Positions 4,115 to 12,238 of a stretch of DNA of 64,000 bases are shown in pieces (the first letter of the stretch is position 1; each line of letters starts with the position of its first letter). Position numbers and translations under genes: made by a program. Below the pieces are notes generated by a model. The model saw only the letters and a list, made by a program, of their open reading frames with translations. It made no database searches and was not told the DNA's origin. Origin of the DNA: a virus; IMG/VR virus record IMGVR_UViG_3300021085_002380; one strand, 5' to 3'.

Positions 4115-4660
4115 TTATTCCCTTCCATTATAAAATCCACTAATTTGTAAAGTATATTTTGGCGTTAAGCCAGCATTTGCGCTAAGGTGTAAATGATCAC
4201 TATCCCAAACAAACCCGTCACCAGCTTTCCAATGAGTACTTGTTTGCCATTTTTTGTAATGATCTTGATAATTTATAAAATGGCCTGGAGCCCAATCTTC
4301 TAAGTAAATATTAGCTCGTACCTTTTTACGCTTATCATCAGGAAACGTTTTGTTTATTTTAAAAAACGTATCCCTATGCATTGTAATAGTATTCCCGGGT
4401 GGCTGCAATATTGCACTTATTGTAACCGGCTCGATCTTTAATTTATTTCCGAGTTCTTCAAAGTCTACATCAATAGGATCAAACCATAGCTGTTGGATCT
4501 TTGTGTTTTCTTCAGAATAGCTTTCTGGAAATCCACCAAATGTTTTATGAATATCTTCTTGTTCACGAACTTGGTAACTGACGCAACTACCTTTGTGTTT
4601 TTCGTAATCAGCATTTAAAAAGGTTGAAAAATCATGTCTCAATTTTATTCTATAAATCAT
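4115..4660 (-). CDS. Cupin / 2OG-Fe(II) oxygenase-like (Asp/Asn beta-hydroxylase-like)
   Basis: QPPGNTITMHRD (HxD) ... WKAGDGFVW...HLSANAG. Confidence 0.6.
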   Translation of the reverse strand: MIYRIKLRHDFSTFLNADYEKHKGSCVSYQVREQEDIHKTFGGFPESYSEENTKIQQLWFDPIDVDFEELGNKLKIEPVTISAILQPPGNTITMHRDTFFKINKTFPDDKRKKVRANIYLEDWAPGHFINYQDHYKKWQTSTHWKAGDGFVWDSDHLHLSANAGLTPKYTLQISGFYNGRE

Positions 4661-5981
4661 TTAAAAACCTTTCCATATCAGATATATCGTGTTCGTTGTA
4701 TCTAAACGCCTTTATATTATGTATATTTATCTCATCACTGTCAATTAAATACTGCGACAAATCAGTATGATATAATCTTTCTACTTCATCCATTACCATG
4801 TTAAAGCGATATAATTGGTTATGCTCCGCATCAAACGAATAGTCAATCCATGGATAAAACCGATATCCTTTACTTTCTAAATAAGGTTTTAAATCAGGTG
4901 ATGCAATCCACAAAAACGGCTGTCCTAGCATTAACGGCCTATAAATTTTTTCAGTAATTGATGGCATATGTGTTCTTGATTCAATTACAACTTGAAATTG
5001 CGAGTCTATAAATTGCGGCGGAGTCCTATACCAAAATTGTCCTGTTGCAACTTTCATCCAACGTGTTTTAATATCTTCGCCATCATCATTTAAAATACGG
5101 TGTTTGAAAACGTTTTCCGGTCCTACGCGGTTTACAGTATCGTGCACAGATTGTTTTAATACTGGGTCTGGGTTTTCTAAATATTTTTTAATAGATGCTT
5201 CTGGGTCTGCAACGTTTTGTGTATGTATTACATCATCTTGCCATAATATGTTTCTTTCAATCAATTCAGCAATTAAGTCTAAACGTAACCATCTTCCGTC
5301 TATCATTCCAACTGGCACTGATAACTTATATTTATGATTTGCATATGGATCCCACTGAATATATGGAAAATGAGAAATCTTATCAAAACAATCAATGTGT
5401 GTTACGTATGGTTTATATTTTTCAGAGTGCGAAGAGTACGGTTCAGTATTTTCTTGGTTTGTATCATATGAATTTAATAACCATTGAAATTTGTTTGGCG
5501 GTATCTTTTCGCATAATTTATCAAAATCTAAAAAGAAATTGTCAAACGTGGAGTCGCTAATATAACGCTCAGGGCGTAATATTACAAACTCAAATATCCA
5601 TGCTACAACTATCTTAACGTTGTTATTATTTACAAAGTTTAATAAGTCTTGACTTTTTAATAATAACCCAGGAATTTCACATAAAGTACGAGTATCATCA
5701 CCCGGTAAGATTATAAGATTTATATCATCATCGTTAACCGTATCTTGATTTATTATTTTGTATGAAGGTTTAAATTTTTCAGAACATTCTTCGTCTCGTT
5801 CGTCTGCAAAATATTTAAAAAACTGTTCTCGTATTTTTTTATCATACCAAATGTATTTAACATCGCCAAGACTATCACCAAACTTTTTAGACTCAGGGCC
5901 GGTCCACATTGGTACATTTCGTACTGGGCAAAAAGCAGGATTCCACGTCCAAATTTTTATTTTGTCAACAAATGGTTTCAT
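4650..5981 (-). CDS. Hypothetical protein with GT10-like glycosyltransferase C-terminus
   Basis: VVIES...SITEKIYRPLMLGQPF resembles the GT10 alpha-1,3-fucosyltransferase motif. Confidence 0.5.
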   Translation of the reverse strand: MKPFVDKIKIWTWNPAFCPVRNVPMWTGPESKKFGDSLGDVKYIWYDKKIREQFFKYFADERDEECSEKFKPSYKIINQDTVNDDDINLIILPGDDTRTLCEIPGLLLKSQDLLNFVNNNNVKIVVAWIFEFVILRPERYISDSTFDNFFLDFDKLCEKIPPNKFQWLLNSYDTNQENTEPYSSHSEKYKPYVTHIDCFDKISHFPYIQWDPYANHKYKLSVPVGMIDGRWLRLDLIAELIERNILWQDDVIHTQNVADPEASIKKYLENPDPVLKQSVHDTVNRVGPENVFKHRILNDDGEDIKTRWMKVATGQFWYRTPPQFIDSQFQVVIESRTHMPSITEKIYRPLMLGQPFLWIASPDLKPYLESKGYRFYPWIDYSFDAEHNQLYRFNMVMDEVERLYHTDLSQYLIDSDEINIHNIKAFRYNEHDISDMERFLNDL

Positions 5982-6035
5982 TTTGCAACTGTCAAATTAT
6001 ATTATGTGTCAAACTTTTGACACTCCCAAAAAACC

Positions 6036-6043
6036 TATAAATA
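6036..6043 (+). promoter_or_regulatory. T4-type late promoter
   Basis: TATAAATA upstream of the 6087-13173 plus-strand operon. Confidence 0.65.
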
Positions 6044-6086
6044 TATATAATAGAGTAAAGTATGCTTTTATCATTATTAATATGGG

Positions 6087-6659
6087 ATGAACATTATGCC
6101 AAGACATTTACTCTTTCTGTTTTTATTATTTATACCTTTCATTGGTCCAACCATAGCGGAGGCAGAGCCAATAGTTACAGAGAGCACAACAGACAGTACT
6201 ATTAACAGCAATAGTACATCGGAGACTACAGTCAATTCTCCACCGCCGTCGGCGATCGCTCCTTCGATTAATTCAGCCAATTCAGATTTATGTACCGTAG
6301 GTGTATCAGGCGCGGTTCAAACACAGATATTAGGTATATCAGGTGCCAAGATGGTTCGTGATATGAACTGCGAAAAACTAAAGAACGCTAAAACATTATA
6401 TGATATGGGAATGAAGGTGGCCGCTGTTTCGGTAATGTGTCAAGATCCTCGTGTATTTAATGCTATGATGGATGCAGGAACACCTTGCCCTTATGATGGT
6501 ATGATTGGTGATGCAGCTAAGGCGGCATGGATTGCCAATCGTGATGAACAGCCTGAAGATCCGCAAAGTAATATAATAAAGGATATGAACGATGAGACCA
6601 AGTCTACTTTGTTCGGCGGTGGCCTTGTGGGCGGCCTCCTTCTCTTATTGCTACTCTGA
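6087..6659 (+). CDS. Secreted Cys-containing protein with C-terminal hydrophobic anchor
   Basis: Signal peptide, Ser/Thr linker, Cys-flanked beta segment, C-terminal LVGGLLLLLLL. Confidence 0.7.
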   Translation: MNIMPRHLLFLFLLFIPFIGPTIAEAEPIVTESTTDSTINSNSTSETTVNSPPPSAIAPSINSANSDLCTVGVSGAVQTQILGISGAKMVRDMNCEKLKNAKTLYDMGMKVAAVSVMCQDPRVFNAMMDAGTPCPYDGMIGDAAKAAWIANRDEQPEDPQSNIIKDMNDETKSTLFGGGLVGGLLLLLLL

Positions 6660-7491
6660 TACAACATATAGTTCAACTAATAACGCCGCGGCGGAAGCTT
6701 TAGCGTGGGCAATGAAAAATGTTTTACCTGATTCAACTGCACCTTATATCTCAGTAGAAATAAATGGTTTAGCTTATCAATATACAATGGTGAAAGATCC
6801 TGAGGCAGACGCAACTGTTACGATTTCAAACGAAGACGCTGCAAATCCTGGGACAAATATTTTTGAAGAAACAGATGATTGGAGTGGTAATCCTGGTGGA
6901 ACTGTAAGGAAATATTTTAGATTTGATTATACAGATTCTTCTAGGTGGGGAGATGGCGAAATAAGTGTTGAAGGCGAAGGTACGGTTACAGACCCATTTG
7001 TAGTTTACAATTACAAGATGGTAGTAGATGAAAGTTTCCAATGTCTTTCACCATTGTCAAATCCAAGTTGTCCTGGATATTCCACGGCACTGGCTGAGTA
7101 TTTAGCTTCGCTTGCGCAACCGCCGTCAATTGGTGATCCGTATTATGATGAGTGGGTCCAAGCAGAATTAAACCGTGAAGCAAATAGAGATGAGGAAGAA
7201 TTAGAACAAGCAGACAACAGTAATGAAGTAGAAGATGATTTGGAAGAGCAACTGGGTGGTAATAACAATATCGACAAGTTAGTTGATGGTGCCGCCCAGC
7301 AATCAATTTTAGCAAATTTATCGTTAAATCCAAAGATTGTACCATATTATGAAGTAACGATCCCGGGCGGCCAATACGAAGATACTTTAGTATTACCTTC
7401 GACAAGTTATCCGGATAATAGAAGAGCGATGAGAAACTTAGCATCAGACGCTAATCATAGATCTATGGTACGCTCACAATACGAACGATAA
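6592..7491 (+). CDS. Secreted beta-rich acidic protein (adhesin-like?)
   Basis: Signal peptide, beta-rich domain, CLSPLSNPSCPGY. Confidence 0.65.
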   Translation: MRPSLLCSAVALWAASFSYCYSDTTYSSTNNAAAEALAWAMKNVLPDSTAPYISVEINGLAYQYTMVKDPEADATVTISNEDAANPGTNIFEETDDWSGNPGGTVRKYFRFDYTDSSRWGDGEISVEGEGTVTDPFVVYNYKMVVDESFQCLSPLSNPSCPGYSTALAEYLASLAQPPSIGDPYYDEWVQAELNREANRDEEELEQADNSNEVEDDLEEQLGGNNNIDKLVDGAAQQSILANLSLNPKIVPYYEVTIPGGQYEDTLVLPSTSYPDNRRAMRNLASDANHRSMVRSQYER

Positions 7492-7502
7492 GGAGAAATT
7501 GT

Positions 7503-8003
7503 ATGTTCAAACATTTAATACTTGGCGGCGCAGCCATGATGATTTGCAGTTCTGCAGGCGCGGCAGAAACTCCAATTACTGGTAACGTAGCGTCAAAATG
7601 TTCGATTTATACGGACACAGCTGGTGTTTATGGTAACCCTACACCAGACGAATTAAGTACAACACCTGCGGACGGTGGTGTTTATCCGGTTGTACGCTAT
7701 GATGTTGCCATTGCAGACTATTACACCGCTAAAATTTCCTGGCCAATTTCGTTTTCATCTGCCCCGAGTCTTACCGACTCAGTAACATGGGATGGAGAAG
7801 TTACAGTAACGAATACATCAGATACTAATATGTCAGGATACGAAGCAGCTAAAATTGAGTACGACAACCACACTGAATACGATCTTAGTGTAGCTGGATC
7901 TACTTGGTTTTCAGTTGAGTCAGAAGCAAAATACGGTGTAGGTAAATCACTACCTGGTGGTGAATACAAGGCAAACGTTATTGCAGAGTGTATTGCGGAC
8001 TAA
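7503..8003 (+). CDS. Fimbrial/pilin-like secreted subunit
   Basis: Signal peptide ending AGA, ITGNVASKC N-terminal strand, C-terminal PGGEYKANVIAEC; 166 aa. Confidence 0.55.
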   Translation: MFKHLILGGAAMMICSSAGAAETPITGNVASKCSIYTDTAGVYGNPTPDELSTTPADGGVYPVVRYDVAIADYYTAKISWPISFSSAPSLTDSVTWDGEVTVTNTSDTNMSGYEAAKIEYDNHTEYDLSVAGSTWFSVESEAKYGVGKSLPGGEYKANVIAECIAD

Positions 8004-8044
8004 AAGGTGTTAATTTGGGTAAAAAGTATATTGAGGGATTAAGA

Positions 8045-8419
8045 ATGAAGTATTTGGTGAGTTTGTTTATTATGTTAACTTGTACACCGGTTTTATCACA
8101 CGAATTGACACCAACATACCCAAAAATGCGCCCTGCATATGTTGACGGTGTGTTGGTGACAACTATGGATATATGGAATAGAAGAACCGATGTAGAATAC
8201 TACGAAATTGAAGTCTTTAATAAATATTGGGAGCCACTTCCGTTTGCTTCACAAGATAAAATAATAAAGATTAACTATTTGCAAAAGAAACAGTTTAACG
8301 TCTATATCAAATCTGAGCATGGAAGTAAAGCTGTATATATATGTACTACCTCTAAATTATTGAGGGAAGATGTACTATCAACCGGAGTAAAATCGAGGAT
8401 ATGCTCCAAGATAAAGTGA
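8045..8419 (+). CDS. Putative pilus chaperone-like (single Ig domain) secreted protein
   Basis: Signal peptide, HELTPTYP, IWNRRTDVEYYEIEV, two C-terminal Cys; follows the pilin-like gene. Confidence 0.45.
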   Translation: MKYLVSLFIMLTCTPVLSHELTPTYPKMRPAYVDGVLVTTMDIWNRRTDVEYYEIEVFNKYWEPLPFASQDKIIKINYLQKKQFNVYIKSEHGSKAVYICTTSKLLREDVLSTGVKSRICSKIK

Positions 8420-8426
8420 GAACATT

Positions 8427-8837
8427 ATGCGTTACATTATTTCATTGTGTTTGTTGTTGTTTACGACCACAGCAAATGCAGACTCTGGTTCGGTAAGTTT
8501 AGCATTGCCGAGCGCCCCAGGAAATTACCAATCTGATAAATTTAAGGCTGGTGATTTAGATTGTTCTAATGCCATCGGATCGGCTACACAACTTGAGCTC
8601 GGTGTAACTGGTCTTATTGACGGCGGTTATTATGATGATGTGAATCGATATATTAACGATAGACGTGTTGATAACGTCGGTGTATATGCAAGGATTGTTA
8701 TACCACTCGGCGCAAGACCTAAAGAAAGAATTGATTGTAATAGGTTATACGAAATGGAATTACAGTTAAAATCGCTGGAATTAGAACGTTTAAGAAGAGA
8801 GCTTCAGCAATTGAAAGAATTATCTTTTGAGGAGTAA
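8427..8837 (+). CDS. Secreted protein with amphipathic beta-hairpin and C-terminal coiled coil
   Basis: Signal peptide; QLELGVTG and VGVYARIVIPLG flanked by Cys; heptad tail. Confidence 0.65.
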   Translation: MRYIISLCLLLFTTTANADSGSVSLALPSAPGNYQSDKFKAGDLDCSNAIGSATQLELGVTGLIDGGYYDDVNRYINDRRVDNVGVYARIVIPLGARPKERIDCNRLYEMELQLKSLELERLRRELQQLKELSFEE

Positions 8838-8839
8838 AC

Positions 8840-9502
8840 ATGGCTGAATTTGAATTTGCAGGAACCACGTTTAGAGGTGGTAAGATGTTTGCTGTTTTAA
8901 CGGCATTATCTACTTTAGGCGGCGGCGCATGGGCGGGTTTTGAATTTTATGCGGACTACATGGACATGAAAGAAATTGTTCAAAATATTGATATTGATGA
9001 AATTGCAGCTGCCAACGTGTTGCAATTACAAAAATTAGAAGATGCTATTGGATATACGCAAGACATTAAAGGAGATTTAAAAGGTGACATTAACAGGAGT
9101 GAAGAGTTAATATCATCGTTGGAAGATCAAATAATTGCAATGGAAACTACCGTAAGAACTTTACGTAAAGATGTTTACGATAAATTAGATACGTTTGAAG
9201 AGCGATTAAGAGTAACACTCAAAAGTAATCAAGATACGATGTCTGATTTACGTGATCGTATTAGTACTAATTTAGAAAACTCTGAGGCAAGAATTAAAGC
9301 TACACAAGCAAGCATTGGCACAACTCTTGAAGGCGTAAGAACAGAAATGAACCAAGTTCAAAAAGATGTAACTGCGTCTATCCGAGAAGTTGAAGCTGGT
9401 GTTCGCCAAACAGATAAAGATATAAGAGCTGATATGAAACAGCTTGATAGAGACATATCCGTAAAATTACAAGAAGCATTAGATAATCCATTATCAGAAT
9501 AG
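8840..9502 (+). CDS. Membrane-anchored long coiled-coil protein
   Basis: N-terminal TM then about 170 aa of heptad-like helix. Confidence 0.7.
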   Translation: MAEFEFAGTTFRGGKMFAVLTALSTLGGGAWAGFEFYADYMDMKEIVQNIDIDEIAAANVLQLQKLEDAIGYTQDIKGDLKGDINRSEELISSLEDQIIAMETTVRTLRKDVYDKLDTFEERLRVTLKSNQDTMSDLRDRISTNLENSEARIKATQASIGTTLEGVRTEMNQVQKDVTASIREVEAGVRQTDKDIRADMKQLDRDISVKLQEALDNPLSE

Positions 9503-9511
9503 GAGATAAAC

Positions 9512-9631
9512 ATGTCAGGACCAACGAGAACGTGTACAGCATGCGGCCATGATTGCCATTGTGATAAATCTGATTGTAAAAATTGCCAAAACGATGTTTG
9601 CGTAAAATGCAAATGTGAAAAAGATGTCTGA
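9512..9631 (+). CDS. Metallothionein-like peptide (39 aa, not in ORF track)
   Basis: AGGAG RBS; MSGPTRTCTACGHDCHCDKSDCKNCQNDVCVKCKCEKDV, 9 Cys and 2 His; stop overlaps next ATG. Confidence 0.75.
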   Translation: MSGPTRTCTACGHDCHCDKSDCKNCQNDVCVKCKCEKDV

Positions 9632-9833
9632 CGACTATTATGAAAATACTAGAGAACAAATTCGAGATATCAGAAGAAGAATTAAAGTCCTTAGAGCAGA
9701 ACTCAATAGTAATACGACACGACCCAGTCCTATTCAAGACGATGGAAAAATGGAGAAATCGCCACGGGAAACCTCCGCAGTTCAAGTCGATCCGAGGGAA
9801 GAACTCAAAAGAAAATTAATGAAAAGAGGATAA
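9624..9833 (+). CDS. Hypothetical protein
   Basis: ATG at 9624 coupled to the upstream peptide. Confidence 0.55.
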   Translation: MSDDYYENTREQIRDIRRRIKVLRAELNSNTTRPSPIQDDGKMEKSPRETSAVQVDPREELKRKLMKRG

Positions 9834-9843
9834 GTATAATTAA

Positions 9844-10185
9844 ATGGAAACTATTGCCATTATAGTATTTCTAGCTATGGGAAGTACAATAAACAACTTA
9901 GAAAACGAAGTCGCAACGTTAGGTTATTTTCAAGAGCAAAATACTATGGAAAGTATAAAGCAACAAGAACAGATTAATGATCTTATAATTAGTACGGAAA
10001 AATTAGAAATTCAAGTTAAAGAATTAGAAAAGACAACTGAAATGAGGCATCTTGCATTATCAGGAGCAATCGCTTCAAAATATGCAAGGCATGAAACGTT
10101 TCACGACATGCAGCAAATACAAATAGATATCATGGAAATGAGACAAGATGAAATTTTACAAAAAATGTTAACAGCAGGGGAGTAA
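9844..10185 (+). CDS. Hypothetical coiled-coil protein with N-terminal hydrophobic segment
   Basis: ORF in operon. Confidence 0.55.
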   Translation: METIAIIVFLAMGSTINNLENEVATLGYFQEQNTMESIKQQEQINDLIISTEKLEIQVKELEKTTEMRHLALSGAIASKYARHETFHDMQQIQIDIMEMRQDEILQKMLTAGE

Positions 10186-10187
10186 CA

Positions 10188-10925
10188 ATGTTAGAAAATT
10201 GTGCAAAAATGGCAGAGATCGCCGAGCTTGCGTATATAGATGGGCCTGAAGCAAAACCTAAATATAAGAAACTAGGTTATACAACCCACAAGTTCATTGA
10301 AGTAAACGGTGCACAATGCCACATCATTTCAAATAAAGAAGAAATCGTAATTGCATTCCGTGGTACTGAGCCAAAAGAGTTTTCCGATATTAAGGCAGAC
10401 TTAAACGCTTGGCCAGATAAACCAAACAATGGACACGGATTGGTACATAACGGGTTTCAAGAAGAAGTAAATAAGGTGTGGCCTGATATTGAAAAGGCTC
10501 TATCTAAAATGAAAAGAATTGGAAAACATTTGTTTCTTTGCGGCCATTCTTTAGGAGCTGCAATGGCAACAATTGCAACAAGCCGACTCGGTGATAAAGT
10601 TACTGCTTTATATACATATGGGTCGCCAAGAGTAGGAACTAGAAAATTTGTTAAATCGTTTGATAATATACCTCATTTCCGCCATGTTAACAATAACGAC
10701 TTGGTCACTTGTGTTCCTTTTGCTGCAATGGGATATAGACACCATTCGCAACCGCGGTACATCAACTACTTCGGTCATATTAGAAAAATGAGCAAATGGC
10801 AAAGAACAAAAGATAAATGGCGTGGAAGATTACGTGCATTTAAAAAAGGAATGCCATTCGACGGAGCATACGATCACGGTATGAACCATTATTGTAAATA
10901 CACGAAAGAAAATGAAAATGTCTGA
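10188..10925 (+). CDS. Lipase class 3 (alpha/beta hydrolase)
   Basis: IAFRGT, GHSLG nucleophile elbow, YTYGSPRVG, DLVTCVP, DH. Confidence 0.9.
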   Translation: MLENCAKMAEIAELAYIDGPEAKPKYKKLGYTTHKFIEVNGAQCHIISNKEEIVIAFRGTEPKEFSDIKADLNAWPDKPNNGHGLVHNGFQEEVNKVWPDIEKALSKMKRIGKHLFLCGHSLGAAMATIATSRLGDKVTALYTYGSPRVGTRKFVKSFDNIPHFRHVNNNDLVTCVPFAAMGYRHHSQPRYINYFGHIRKMSKWQRTKDKWRGRLRAFKKGMPFDGAYDHGMNHYCKYTKENENV

Positions 10926-11160
10926 TGAAATTGAAGTACCAAAAATATTACAAAAGCCTGTGCCATTAAAAGATGAAGATACACCAGAAGGAACTTTTGA
11001 TTTAAGCTTTAGGGTAATGAATAATGAAGTAATAGGCTTTGCCATGCGGGTTGATGATTTTAAAGCAAAATGGCTTATCCTTGGTCTTATAGCTATTGCA
11101 ATACTAGGTTTTGTTGCAACAGCCTTTGGTCCAATGATAATGAGTACGTTTGGTGGCTAA
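10912..11160 (+). CDS. Small membrane protein
   Basis: C-terminal TM segment. Confidence 0.6.
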   Translation: MKMSDEIEVPKILQKPVPLKDEDTPEGTFDLSFRVMNNEVIGFAMRVDDFKAKWLILGLIAIAILGFVATAFGPMIMSTFGG

Positions 11161-11344
11161 ACTATTTGATAAATTCTTTCACAGTAAAGCAGCTCATATA
11201 ACTTATGCTATAAGTACAATACTTTTTATTTTACACCTATTATTACATGCAGTACCTTTTGGTATTGGCGGCTGGGTTATATGGGAATATTTTGGTCATG
11301 GCCATTCGCACGAAAGCGGAACTCACAGTCATAAAGATAAATAG
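11150..11344 (+). CDS. Small membrane protein with His-rich tail
   Basis: TM segments; GHGHSHESGTHSH. Confidence 0.55.
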   Translation: MVAKLFDKFFHSKAAHITYAISTILFILHLLLHAVPFGIGGWVIWEYFGHGHSHESGTHSHKDK

Positions 11345-11346
11345 AC

Positions 11347-11913
11347 ATGGGACTAAAATATGATCCTAATCGCTTTAAACATTACGGAAATAGATCAGAA
11401 GATAGATTGAAAAATAATTATTTTTTGGCTATACCGGGTTTATTTAATTTTGACGACATTTATAGTAGCGAAGTAAATAGAATAAAAGATGGCGGTACTA
11501 TTGTAGAAATTGGAATATGGCAAGGTAAAAGTACTGCGTGGATGGCGGAAGCAATAAAAGACAGTAAAAAAGATATAAATTTTTACGCAATTGACCATGA
11601 TGTATCAAACTTGAATGAACACATTGCACCAGTAAAAGATTATGTTAATATATTAAACTTAGACTCTGTTAAAGCCAGCAAACAATTTGAAGATAAATCT
11701 GTAGATTTTGTTTTCATTGACGGCGATCATAGGTATAGTGCTGTGATGAAAGATATATATGCTTGGGATAAAAAAATAAAAGATGGCGGATGTATTGCAG
11801 GACATGATTATATTAAAGATCATGACACATTAAAAGTATGGGATGCTGTAAACGATTTTTACGGAAAAGCAAATGTTTTGAATATAAGATCATCTTGGTA
11901 TATTAGAAAATAG
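11347..11913 (+). CDS. Class I SAM methyltransferase (Methyltransf_24-like)
   Basis: VEIGIWQGKST, DFVFIDGDHRY, GGCIAGHDY. Confidence 0.85.
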   Translation: MGLKYDPNRFKHYGNRSEDRLKNNYFLAIPGLFNFDDIYSSEVNRIKDGGTIVEIGIWQGKSTAWMAEAIKDSKKDINFYAIDHDVSNLNEHIAPVKDYVNILNLDSVKASKQFEDKSVDFVFIDGDHRYSAVMKDIYAWDKKIKDGGCIAGHDYIKDHDTLKVWDAVNDFYGKANVLNIRSSWYIRK

Positions 11914-11929
11914 AATAAGGGACAACAAA

Positions 11930-12238
11930 ATGGAAATGCTAACTAGAATGTTTGGCGATACGCTGTGGATATATACAGCTATTGGAGGATCCGTTTTAGG
12001 CGCTGCCTTTTTAGCTTGGTTTAGAAATACCAAAGCTGCGCTATATTTAATGGGTAAGCTTGATAATACTTTAGACTACCTAGTTGATAAGTTTGGTTGG
12101 GAATGGTTACAAGATGATCCTGAAGCGTGGCGCAAGCGCTATCCAAAGGTCACAAAGAAAATTGATGATTTAGAACTGCGGCTACGAGCGTTAGAAGCTG
12201 GATCTAAAACAAAAGTTATAAAACAAAAGAAGGATTAG
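11930..12238 (+). CDS. Hypothetical membrane protein
   Basis: N-terminal TM; AAGGGA RBS. Confidence 0.6.
   Translation: MEMLTRMFGDTLWIYTAIGGSVLGAAFLAWFRNTKAALYLMGKLDNTLDYLVDKFGWEWLQDDPEAWRKRYPKVTKKIDDLELRLRALEAGSKTKVIKQKKD

Follow-up and report, generated by a model that had tools for sequence, protein, structure and literature searches.

A candidate usher-free envelope module in an uncultured marine T4-like phage, with counterparts in vibriophages and Proteobacteria

Introduction

Between positions 6,036 and 9,502 of the IMG/VR virus record IMGVR_UViG_3300021085_002380, in a stretch of 64,000 nucleotides (nt) that we analysed as a whole and call the window, six genes, here named A to F, follow one another behind a late promoter box, and all six products carry an export signal or a membrane anchor. 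What would a phage send into the envelope of its host late in infection, and do these six genes act together? An earlier note on this DNA had proposed that they form a single secreted module resembling a fimbrial system without an usher, the outer-membrane protein of about 800 amino acids (aa; PF00577) that chaperone-usher pili need. The analysis presented here does not bear out a single six-gene system. Three of the genes, C, D and E (7503-8837), appear to be a phage-borne copy of a widespread and self-contained proteobacterial envelope module that is in no family library, and A, B and F form a separate, phage-only set that flanks them.

Results

A conserved late block of envelope proteins

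Genes A to F are tightly packed, head to tail, on the + strand (6087-9502). An exact match to a T4-type late promoter box, TATAAATA (6036..6043, + strand), lies 44 nt upstream of A. This box occurs 16 times in the window against 8.4 copies expected, and most of its + strand copies stand directly upstream of + strand genes; a sequence scan of the block found neither a second late box nor a convincing terminator in its interior. A to E each start with one K or R followed by a hydrophobic 12-mer (Kyte-Doolittle 1.9-3.1), and their signal peptides end in small-residue cleavage sites of the A-x-A type. The counts of Cys in the mature proteins are all even, with four in A and two each in B, C, D and E. 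The earlier description of a promoter followed by six packed and exported open reading frames (ORFs) therefore holds, with signal peptides on five of them and a membrane anchor on the sixth, F. A and B share 68 nt (6592-6659), read in different frames: one frame encodes the hydrophobic C-terminal tail of A (...G-G-L-L-L-L-L-L-L) and the other the signal peptide of B; the overlap and both of its hydrophobic readings are kept in related loci.

A scan of IMG/VR with C retrieved 57 viral loci, with protein identities of 33-97%. The order A-B-C-D-E is kept in all of them (57/57), and F usually comes next after E, with an insertion between the two in some loci. Alignments of A, C, D and E across the viral loci indicate strong purifying selection. 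The C profile matches more than 3400 metagenome clusters at 90% identity, Tara samples included, and the cassette is that of an abundant phage lineage.

The large ORFs of the window match PHROG families of topoisomerase II, helicases, SbcCD, B-family DNA polymerase and a DnaB-like helicase, and its GC content is 33-42%. The B-family DNA polymerase shares at most 44% identity with T4-like cyanophage polymerases, and no isolated phage matches the region at the DNA level except over a 125-nt stretch in gene A. On the grounds of the replication-gene matches, the polymerase comparison and the lack of a DNA match to isolated phages, the window is best placed as the replication-side portion of an uncultured marine T4-like myovirus.

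C-D-E in bacteria and vibriophages

Since the broad alignment of E was too diverse for a scan of bacterial genomes, a single peptide pattern from a narrower E alignment was used, which yielded 235 confirmed stretches; the counts given here refer to the best 80 of these, and the list of taxa leans to Alphaproteobacteria. The 80 stretches come from Litorimonas, Hellea, Algimonas, Parvularcula, Hyphococcus, Mesorhizobium, Aminobacter and other Alphaproteobacteria. On these chromosomal contigs, the E homologues are preceded by C- and D-sized genes with the same Cys pairs and end motifs, and iterative searches recovered C-like genes in 79/80 loci and D-like genes in 78/80. Of the 80 loci, 31 have the order C-D-E and 33 the order C-D-E-C, with D and E overlapping by about 34-37 nt, and the phage C, D and E profiles match the bacterial C, D and E proteins directly. 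The earlier note had made its reading depend on these genes being syntenic elsewhere, and they are, both across the viral loci and, for C-D-E, in bacteria. The bacterial neighbours are genes for LysE, PfkB, an amidase and endonuclease III, housekeeping genes in a lineage-specific synteny and not secretion genes.

The number of C-type genes varies among bacteria. In the rhizobia Mesorhizobium and Aminobacter a second C-type gene follows E, sometimes two or three, and in one bacterial locus two C-D pairs stand ahead of a fusion of E with an OmpA domain. The extra C genes may represent major and minor subunits.

The module is also found in a second group of phages. E matches 51 T5-like Vibrio phages, and in Vibrio phage Thalassa full-length matches to the C, D and E profiles come from three consecutive genes, gp150, gp151 and gp152 (14.7, 20.1 and 37.9 bits, respectively); no A, B or F was found in Thalassa. 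Ahead of the triad are a tail-fibre-assembly-like gene, gp147, and two proteins of about 820 aa, gp148 and gp149. After the triad comes gp153 (locus 4308-4511), a protein of 67 aa with a clear lipobox, L-I-I-S-G-C, which could be a receptor-blocking lipoprotein of the T5 Llp kind or an o-spanin.

When all six block proteins and each sequence of the C and D alignments were searched against Pfam, PHROGs and NCBIfam, the only matches were one unnamed PHROG each for A and E and, for F, noise from its coiled coil; C, D and E have no match in Pfam, NCBIfam or the sequences of the Protein Data Bank (PDB).

An immunoglobulin-like subunit

C (7503..8003, + strand) is a secreted protein with a predicted immunoglobulin (Ig)-like beta sandwich, a disulfide pair C33-C163 and a C-terminal strand of the form G-x-Y-x-x-x-V. 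The phage alignment keeps C33, C163 and G-G-E-Y-x-A-N-V, and of 96 homologues from phages and bacteria at least 80% have the Cys pair and the G-x-Y motif; the two motifs singled out by the earlier note, I-T-G-N-V..C33 and G-G-E-Y-K-A-N-V...C163, are indeed present and conserved. An AlphaFold2 (AF2) monomer model is a beta sandwich (pLDDT 67.5). Its marginal top matches in Foldseek include the PapG pilin domain and CfaB, and its best matches by VIA are DEv-IgG domains of MSCRAMM proteins (ClfB, SdrG, FnBPA; Z 7.6-8.4, about 100-112 residues aligned, root-mean-square deviation (rmsd) about 3 A), at 5-11% identity and with Z values in the range of a common arrangement. The pilin-like character proposed for C is thus retained as regards an adhesin- or pilin-type sandwich and pilin-like termini, but its best structural matches are MSCRAMM DEv-IgG domains and not chaperone-usher pilins.

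At the level of sequence, C and its 25 homologues have no Pfam match, PF00419 (Fimbrial) and PF05229 (SCPU) included. An initial hhalign match of C to Escherichia coli K-12 pilins, at 46-59% probability, was discounted because it was driven by signal peptides: once these were cut, the probability fell to at most 0.2% against 11 pilins. UniRef names some Mesorhizobium homologues of C 'Spore coat protein U domain-containing', a source name that the PF05229 test did not confirm. Candidate donor-like strands, read from the alignments alone, are P-I-T-G-N-V in C and S-L-N-L-x-L-P in E.

A putative single-domain PapD-like partner

D (8045..8419, + strand, inside a 7988-8419 ORF) is secreted and has one Ig domain, with a predicted PapD/MSP-like fold and a Cys pair, C100-C120. 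The mature phage protein has about 105 aa, and bacterial D proteins have about 125-145 aa. The phage alignment keeps H19, an N-R-R motif, C100 and C120. The AF2 model (pLDDT 83) consists of one seven-strand Ig domain, and its Foldseek list is headed and dominated by the chaperones DraB, PapD, FaeE, SfaE, Caf1M and FimC (E 1.5e-3 to 1e-2, TM-score about 0.4-0.5). The list is also rich in MSP domains, which share the PapD-like fold. By VIA, nine chaperone families were matched at Z 7.4-8.8, with FimC the best (8.8; rmsd 3.4, 94 residues aligned), followed by SafB (8.4), YadV (8.2), CupB2 (7.9), CfaA (7.8), PapD (7.7), FaeE (7.6) and CsuC (7.4). In the ESM Atlas, the nearest named, Pfam-bearing cluster is PapD_N, a weak match (0.83), the others being unnamed viral clusters. 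As modelled, D most often resembles the N-domains of PapD-type chaperones among its fold matches. No member of the family formed by D and 30 homologues matched PF00345 (PapD_N) at E<=1. The single-domain periplasmic chaperone seen here by the earlier note accordingly keeps its one Ig domain and its PapD-type fold matches, but has no chaperone-family sequence signature.

The first mature residue of D is a His, within the motif H-E-x-T-P-T-Y-P (coding positions 8099-8179), which is invariant in all 30 phage D sequences. It is restricted to the marine phage lineage, being found neither in Thalassa gp151 nor in bacterial D, where the consensus is A-Q-S-x-S-P-M.

A disulfide-stapled hairpin followed by a coiled coil

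E (8427..8837, + strand) consists of a signal peptide, an L-x-L-P strand, a predicted hairpin stapled by C46-C104 and about 3.5 heptads of coiled coil. Across 67 diverse sequences it shows the N-terminal L-x-L-P strand, D37, C46, an alternating-hydrophobic strand around an invariant G59, a polar loop that varies in length, another alternating strand (G-V-Y-A-R-I-x-I-P-L-G), R101 and C104, after which a 3-4 hydrophobic repeat extends for about 25 residues. The hairpin tip is hypervariable and polar; C46, G59 and C104 are invariant. The C-terminus differs between phages and bacteria: phage E stops after the coiled coil and has no wall-binding domain, and bacterial E carries a SPOR domain in 9/52 cases and an OmpA domain in 1/52, fusions that would put the C-terminal end of the bacterial protein at the cell wall.

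E matches an unnamed PHROG (phrog_37374), and its ESM Atlas matches are unnamed viral clusters only. An exhaustive profile search gave 385 clusters at 50% identity, many of them with high-GC bacterial sequences. A 1795-aa repeat protein also matched by the profile is a LapA/Calx-like repeat adhesin, and we regarded this match as due to chance. The earlier note had pointed to a Cys-flanked amphipathic hairpin followed by a helix in both E and A; in E the hairpin is conserved and heptads follow it, but A is not detectably related to E, and hhalign gave a probability of 1.7% that led us to reject the two as paralogues.

Absence of an usher

The window ORFs of at least 600 aa encode a topoisomerase, a DNA polymerase and a cytidyltransferase-like protein, that is, enzymes of replication and nucleotide metabolism, and none is an usher. 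The claim that the window holds no usher is therefore upheld, and it extends further. At E<=1, PF00577 had no match in a related 182-kb phage genome (91% complete). No usher was detected with PF00577 in 4/5 bacterial genomes with C-D-E, the fifth having one on another contig, and none lies within the 80 bacterial C-D-E loci. The ~820-aa Thalassa proteins gp148 and gp149 were considered as ushers and dismissed, since they lack both a signal peptide and an usher Pfam match and follow a gene matching tail-fibre-assembly PHROGs.

A, B and F as a phage-only set

A (6087..6659, + strand) comprises a signal peptide, a Ser/Thr-rich linker, a 4-Cys domain and a hydrophobic C-terminal tail. The 4-Cys domain is nearly invariant in the alignment, with C69, C95, C118 and C134 strictly so. 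A matches an unnamed PHROG (phrog_20531), and profile searches gave no Pfam and no PDB match. It has homologues in the Pelagibacter podophage HTVC115P (1e-46) and in the myophage Mosig, and its domain also occurs in HTVC023P, HTVC033P, HTVC202P, Baldr, the Roseobacter phages CRP-810 and CRP-207, Ralstonia phage RSP15 and spring-water podoviruses. B (6592..7491, + strand) starts with a signal peptide and a beta-rich N-domain that holds a Cys pair; an acidic linker and a conserved C-terminal M-V-R-S-Q-Y follow, and the protein has no Pfam, PHROG or PDB match. In Mosig and HTVC115P the gene after A shares this layout by eye (beta domain, acidic linker, similar C-terminal motif).

F (8840..9502, + strand) has no Cys. 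It carries a membrane anchor at about residues 16-38, with K/R ahead of it, a long coiled coil and a D-N-P-L end; its only matches are weak coiled-coil-type ones in Pfam and a weak coiled-coil structural PHROG. The hydrophobic segment starting at residue 16 and these matches agree with the earlier description of F as a membrane-anchored coiled coil. Its homologue in HTVC115P is gp49 (7e-26), and CRP-810 gp51 is similar by eye. In the viral loci F occurs in discrete lengths (152, 162, 183/184, 220 and 231 aa) that keep the N-terminal anchor and the D-N-P-L tail, which suggests gain and loss of coiled-coil repeat units and hence a tunable length.

Phage loci with homologues of A, B or F, in pelagiphages and roseophages, occur without C-D-E, and the A and B profiles matched none of the proteins of the 80 bacterial C-D-E loci. 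By these distributions, A, B and F are a separate phage-only set. In HTVC023P the A-B pair and an M15 peptidase are at most a few genes apart. The pair adjoins a holin-like protein with three transmembrane (TM) segments, by eye, in Mosig and Manatee Spring podovirus, stands beside a gene annotated as lysozyme in the latter, and adjoins F-like TM coiled-coil genes in CRP-810 and HTVC115P.

The proteins next to A-B in Mosig (locus 568-1026) and Manatee Spring podovirus (locus 5937-6434), of about 150-165 aa, have a G-x-L-G-F N-terminus and three hydrophobic segments, and by eye resemble the 3-TM holins of gene transfer agents. CRP-810 gp51 (locus 5162-5584) is annotated as 'lysozyme', yet its sequence is that of an F-like TM coiled coil, starting with E-x-K-I-G-G-F-K-F-K-G and ending in N-P-L-G-R; the annotation is probably wrong. 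HTVC033P gp50 (142 aa), also annotated as 'lysozyme', may be the same case.

Genes downstream of the block

Directly after F lies a Cys-rich mini-ORF (9513-9632) of 39 aa with nine Cys and two His, in C-x-x-C, C-H-C and C-x-C arrangements, preceded by a GGAG ribosome-binding site. The late unit continues (9844-12238) with genes for a TM coiled coil (9844-10185), a class 3 lipase that has no signal peptide (10188-10925; PF01764, 8.5e-22), three small membrane proteins and a methyltransferase-like product. These genes may form an unconventional lysis or membrane-remodelling set of the phage.

Discussion

A proposed role for C-D-E

C-D-E is a real, abundant and uncharacterised envelope module. 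Our preferred reading, to which we give a probability of about 0.45, is that it works without an usher, with D chaperoning C and E anchoring C at the outer membrane or passing it on there. C would be exported by Sec and oxidised in the periplasm, where D, as a single-domain PapD-like protein, would hold or cap it. E would oligomerise through its C-terminal coiled coil and position its amphipathic hairpins, each stapled by a disulfide and variable at the tip, within the outer membrane or against it; E could then anchor C or pass it to the cell surface, the role that the usher has elsewhere. In bacteria, the far end of E would be tied to peptidoglycan by the SPOR or OmpA domain where one is present. 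In the phage, C-D-E would be transcribed late as one unit with three further envelope proteins, namely A, anchored by its tail and bearing the 4-Cys domain, B, secreted and with an acidic linker, and F, a coiled coil anchored in the inner membrane. Such late transcription with A, B and F would imply that the envelope or surface of the infected cell is remodelled, and possible uses are adhesion or aggregation ('sibling capture', as proposed for phage curli) or the masking of receptors. A bolder version, which we consider doubtful, holds that C-D-E is a new minimal route of surface assembly or display, in which D would hand C to an oligomer of the roughly 110-residue E, the E hairpins would provide the passage through the outer membrane and the coiled coil would reach the wall, and which abundant ocean phages and vibriophages would have captured to set fibres or adhesins on infected cells.

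Several observations speak against an usher-free chaperone-subunit module. No sequence-level link joins C-D-E to the chaperone-usher families in Pfam, NCBIfam, PDB sequences or hhalign (at most 0.5%). In the five bacterial genomes, PF00345 misses the D genes, as does PF05229 the C genes at E<=1, and hhalign of the D family against five E. coli chaperones, with signal peptides removed, gave a probability of 0.5%. Chaperone-usher pilins are missing from the top 50 VIA matches of C, the model of which reaches a pLDDT of only 67.5, and the top VIA match of D is an unrelated Ig domain (Z 10.0), Z values of 7-9 being in the twilight range. A barrel of hairpins wide enough to admit a folded Ig domain would need many E subunits, and late expression leaves a fibre little time to matter. 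Finally, the genes next to these in Thalassa and in podophages are lysis genes; in Thalassa a T-type holin (PF11031, 3.3e-49) and an M15 endolysin are encoded about 0.6 kb downstream of the triad. The fimbrial interpretation of the earlier note thus survives in the fold classes, the gene logic and the lack of an usher, but not in sequence-level membership of any chaperone-usher family.

Alternative explanations

The lysis genes in these neighbourhoods raise the alternative that the block is a lysis accessory, a spanin-like trans-envelope complex in which F, together with the 9844-10185 protein, would provide inner-membrane arms and A, B and E the periplasmic or outer-membrane partners, all acting together to breach or fuse the envelope as infection ends. 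The N-terminal TM segment and periplasmic coiled coil of F are those of an i-spanin, late expression and Cys pairs on periplasmic proteins are as in spanins, and to the position of the Thalassa triad must be added that of A-B near M15 peptidase, holin-like, 'lysozyme'-annotated or F-like genes in HTVC023P, Mosig, Manatee Spring podovirus, CRP-810 and HTVC115P. For the block as a whole we nevertheless think this unlikely. The alternative is weakened by the chromosomal setting of C-D-E, which many bacteria keep as a stable operon surrounded by housekeeping genes; moreover, a lipobox is missing from the end of every signal peptide in A to E, so that there is no o-spanin among them, and no PHROG lysis family matches any of the six proteins. 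With the families tried, neither the surroundings of the block nor the related 182-kb genome yielded a holin or endolysin: PF00959 and PF13539 had no match in the latter, and the lack of a match to PF11031 (T-holin) is uninformative, as none was obtained in any control genome either. For A, B and F alone, the lysis explanation remains attractive. A module that never reaches the surface is improbable to a comparable degree. Here E would bind the wall or the outer membrane as a tether between outer membrane and peptidoglycan, C-D would be periplasmic cargo, and the phage would stiffen or re-wire the envelope, for superinfection exclusion or lysis timing. The wall-binding SPOR and OmpA domains on bacterial E, an operon without an exporter, and Sec signals with disulfide pairs typical of periplasmic proteins are all consistent with such a tether, but the hypervariable tip of E, the fast evolution of C and the extra C paralogues look more like surface exposure under diversifying pressure, and phage E lacks the wall-binding domain.

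Two other explanations are very improbable. D might be a histidine-brace copper protein, the module handling metals together with the Cys-rich mini-ORF after F, as the His at the mature N-terminus in 30/30 phage sequences and the presence of YcnI and a Cu-only SOD-like protein among weak fold matches would suggest. We rejected copper binding by D because the His is conserved in the phage lineage only and is lost in Thalassa gp151 and bacterial D; there is also no CopC or YcnI Pfam match. The six proteins might, equally improbably, be ordinary parts of the virion or of tail-fibre assembly, given late expression and the genes gp147 to gp149 that precede the Thalassa triad. Cleavable signal peptides and periplasmic disulfide pairs on 5/6 of the proteins, the chromosomal location of the bacterial homologues outside prophages, and the lack of any structural PHROG match save the weak coiled-coil match of F argue against it.

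Significance

Should an Ig-like subunit be exported or displayed by C-D-E without an usher, as our preferred reading has it, this would be a new and very small envelope assembly pathway. The module occurs in rhizobia, marine stalked bacteria and other Proteobacteria and is covered by no family library. Its capture by an abundant marine T4-like lineage and by T5-like vibriophages points to late remodelling of the host surface as a common phage strategy, which would stand beside the still unexplained curli clusters of pelagiphages. The A-B-F set, for its part, might supply the outer-membrane step of lysis that is still missing for phages without recognisable spanins. Culturable systems that carry C-D-E exist in Vibrio phage Thalassa, Mesorhizobium and Hellea.

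Comparison with known systems

Our literature search found no paper on an usher-independent system of this kind, and nothing relevant on Thalassavirus. The nearest precedent for a multi-gene, bacterial-type system for a secreted structure in marine phages is provided by the curli (type VIII) secretion clusters of pelagimyophages and HTVC023P-type podophages, which are widespread in ocean viromes and whose role is unknown, 'sibling capture' and superinfection shielding having been proposed (PMC7029224, PMC9599517). The genes, however, are entirely different, C being an Ig sandwich as opposed to the curli amyloid repeat. Identity of the block with the pelagiphage curli cluster was rejected, as A to F have no CsgG or CsgF Pfam match and PF03783 is absent from the related 182-kb phage.

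With two-component spanins (lambda Rz/Rz1, T4 PseT.3/PseT.2) the block shares the i-spanin layout of F (in topology only), late expression, Cys-containing partners and the closeness of A/B/F relatives to lysis genes in podophages. It differs in having no lipoprotein partner and no embedded or overlapping o-spanin gene, in the lack of a spanin PHROG match for F, and in the bacterial housekeeping context of C-D-E. Anchors of the OmpA/Pal/SPOR type resemble bacterial E in that the latter ends in an OmpA or SPOR peptidoglycan-binding domain after its coiled coil; the N-terminal hairpin domain of E, in contrast, is in no family library, and phage E ends at the coiled coil. The MSCRAMM DEv-IgG domains of ClfB, SdrG and FnBPA, which match the C model best in structure, use beta-strand complementation to bind their ligands, but they belong to multi-domain, sortase-anchored proteins of Gram-positive bacteria.

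Chaperone-usher pili (Pap/Fim, and the archaic Csu/CupE with their SCPU subunits) have in common with C-D-E a small secreted Ig-like subunit with a G-x-Y C-terminal strand, a subunit gene that adjoins one for a secreted protein, in C-D-E with a putative PapD-like Ig fold, several subunit paralogues in some bacteria, and parts that depend on Sec and on disulfides. In contrast, D is one domain of about 105 aa, whereas the known chaperones have two, N and C, with a subunit-binding cleft; C-D-E has no usher and no match to PF00345, PF00419, PF05229 or PF00577, and E has no counterpart in the pili. The triad is therefore like a chaperone-subunit pair in predicted fold and gene logic, yet it stands outside the chaperone-usher families.

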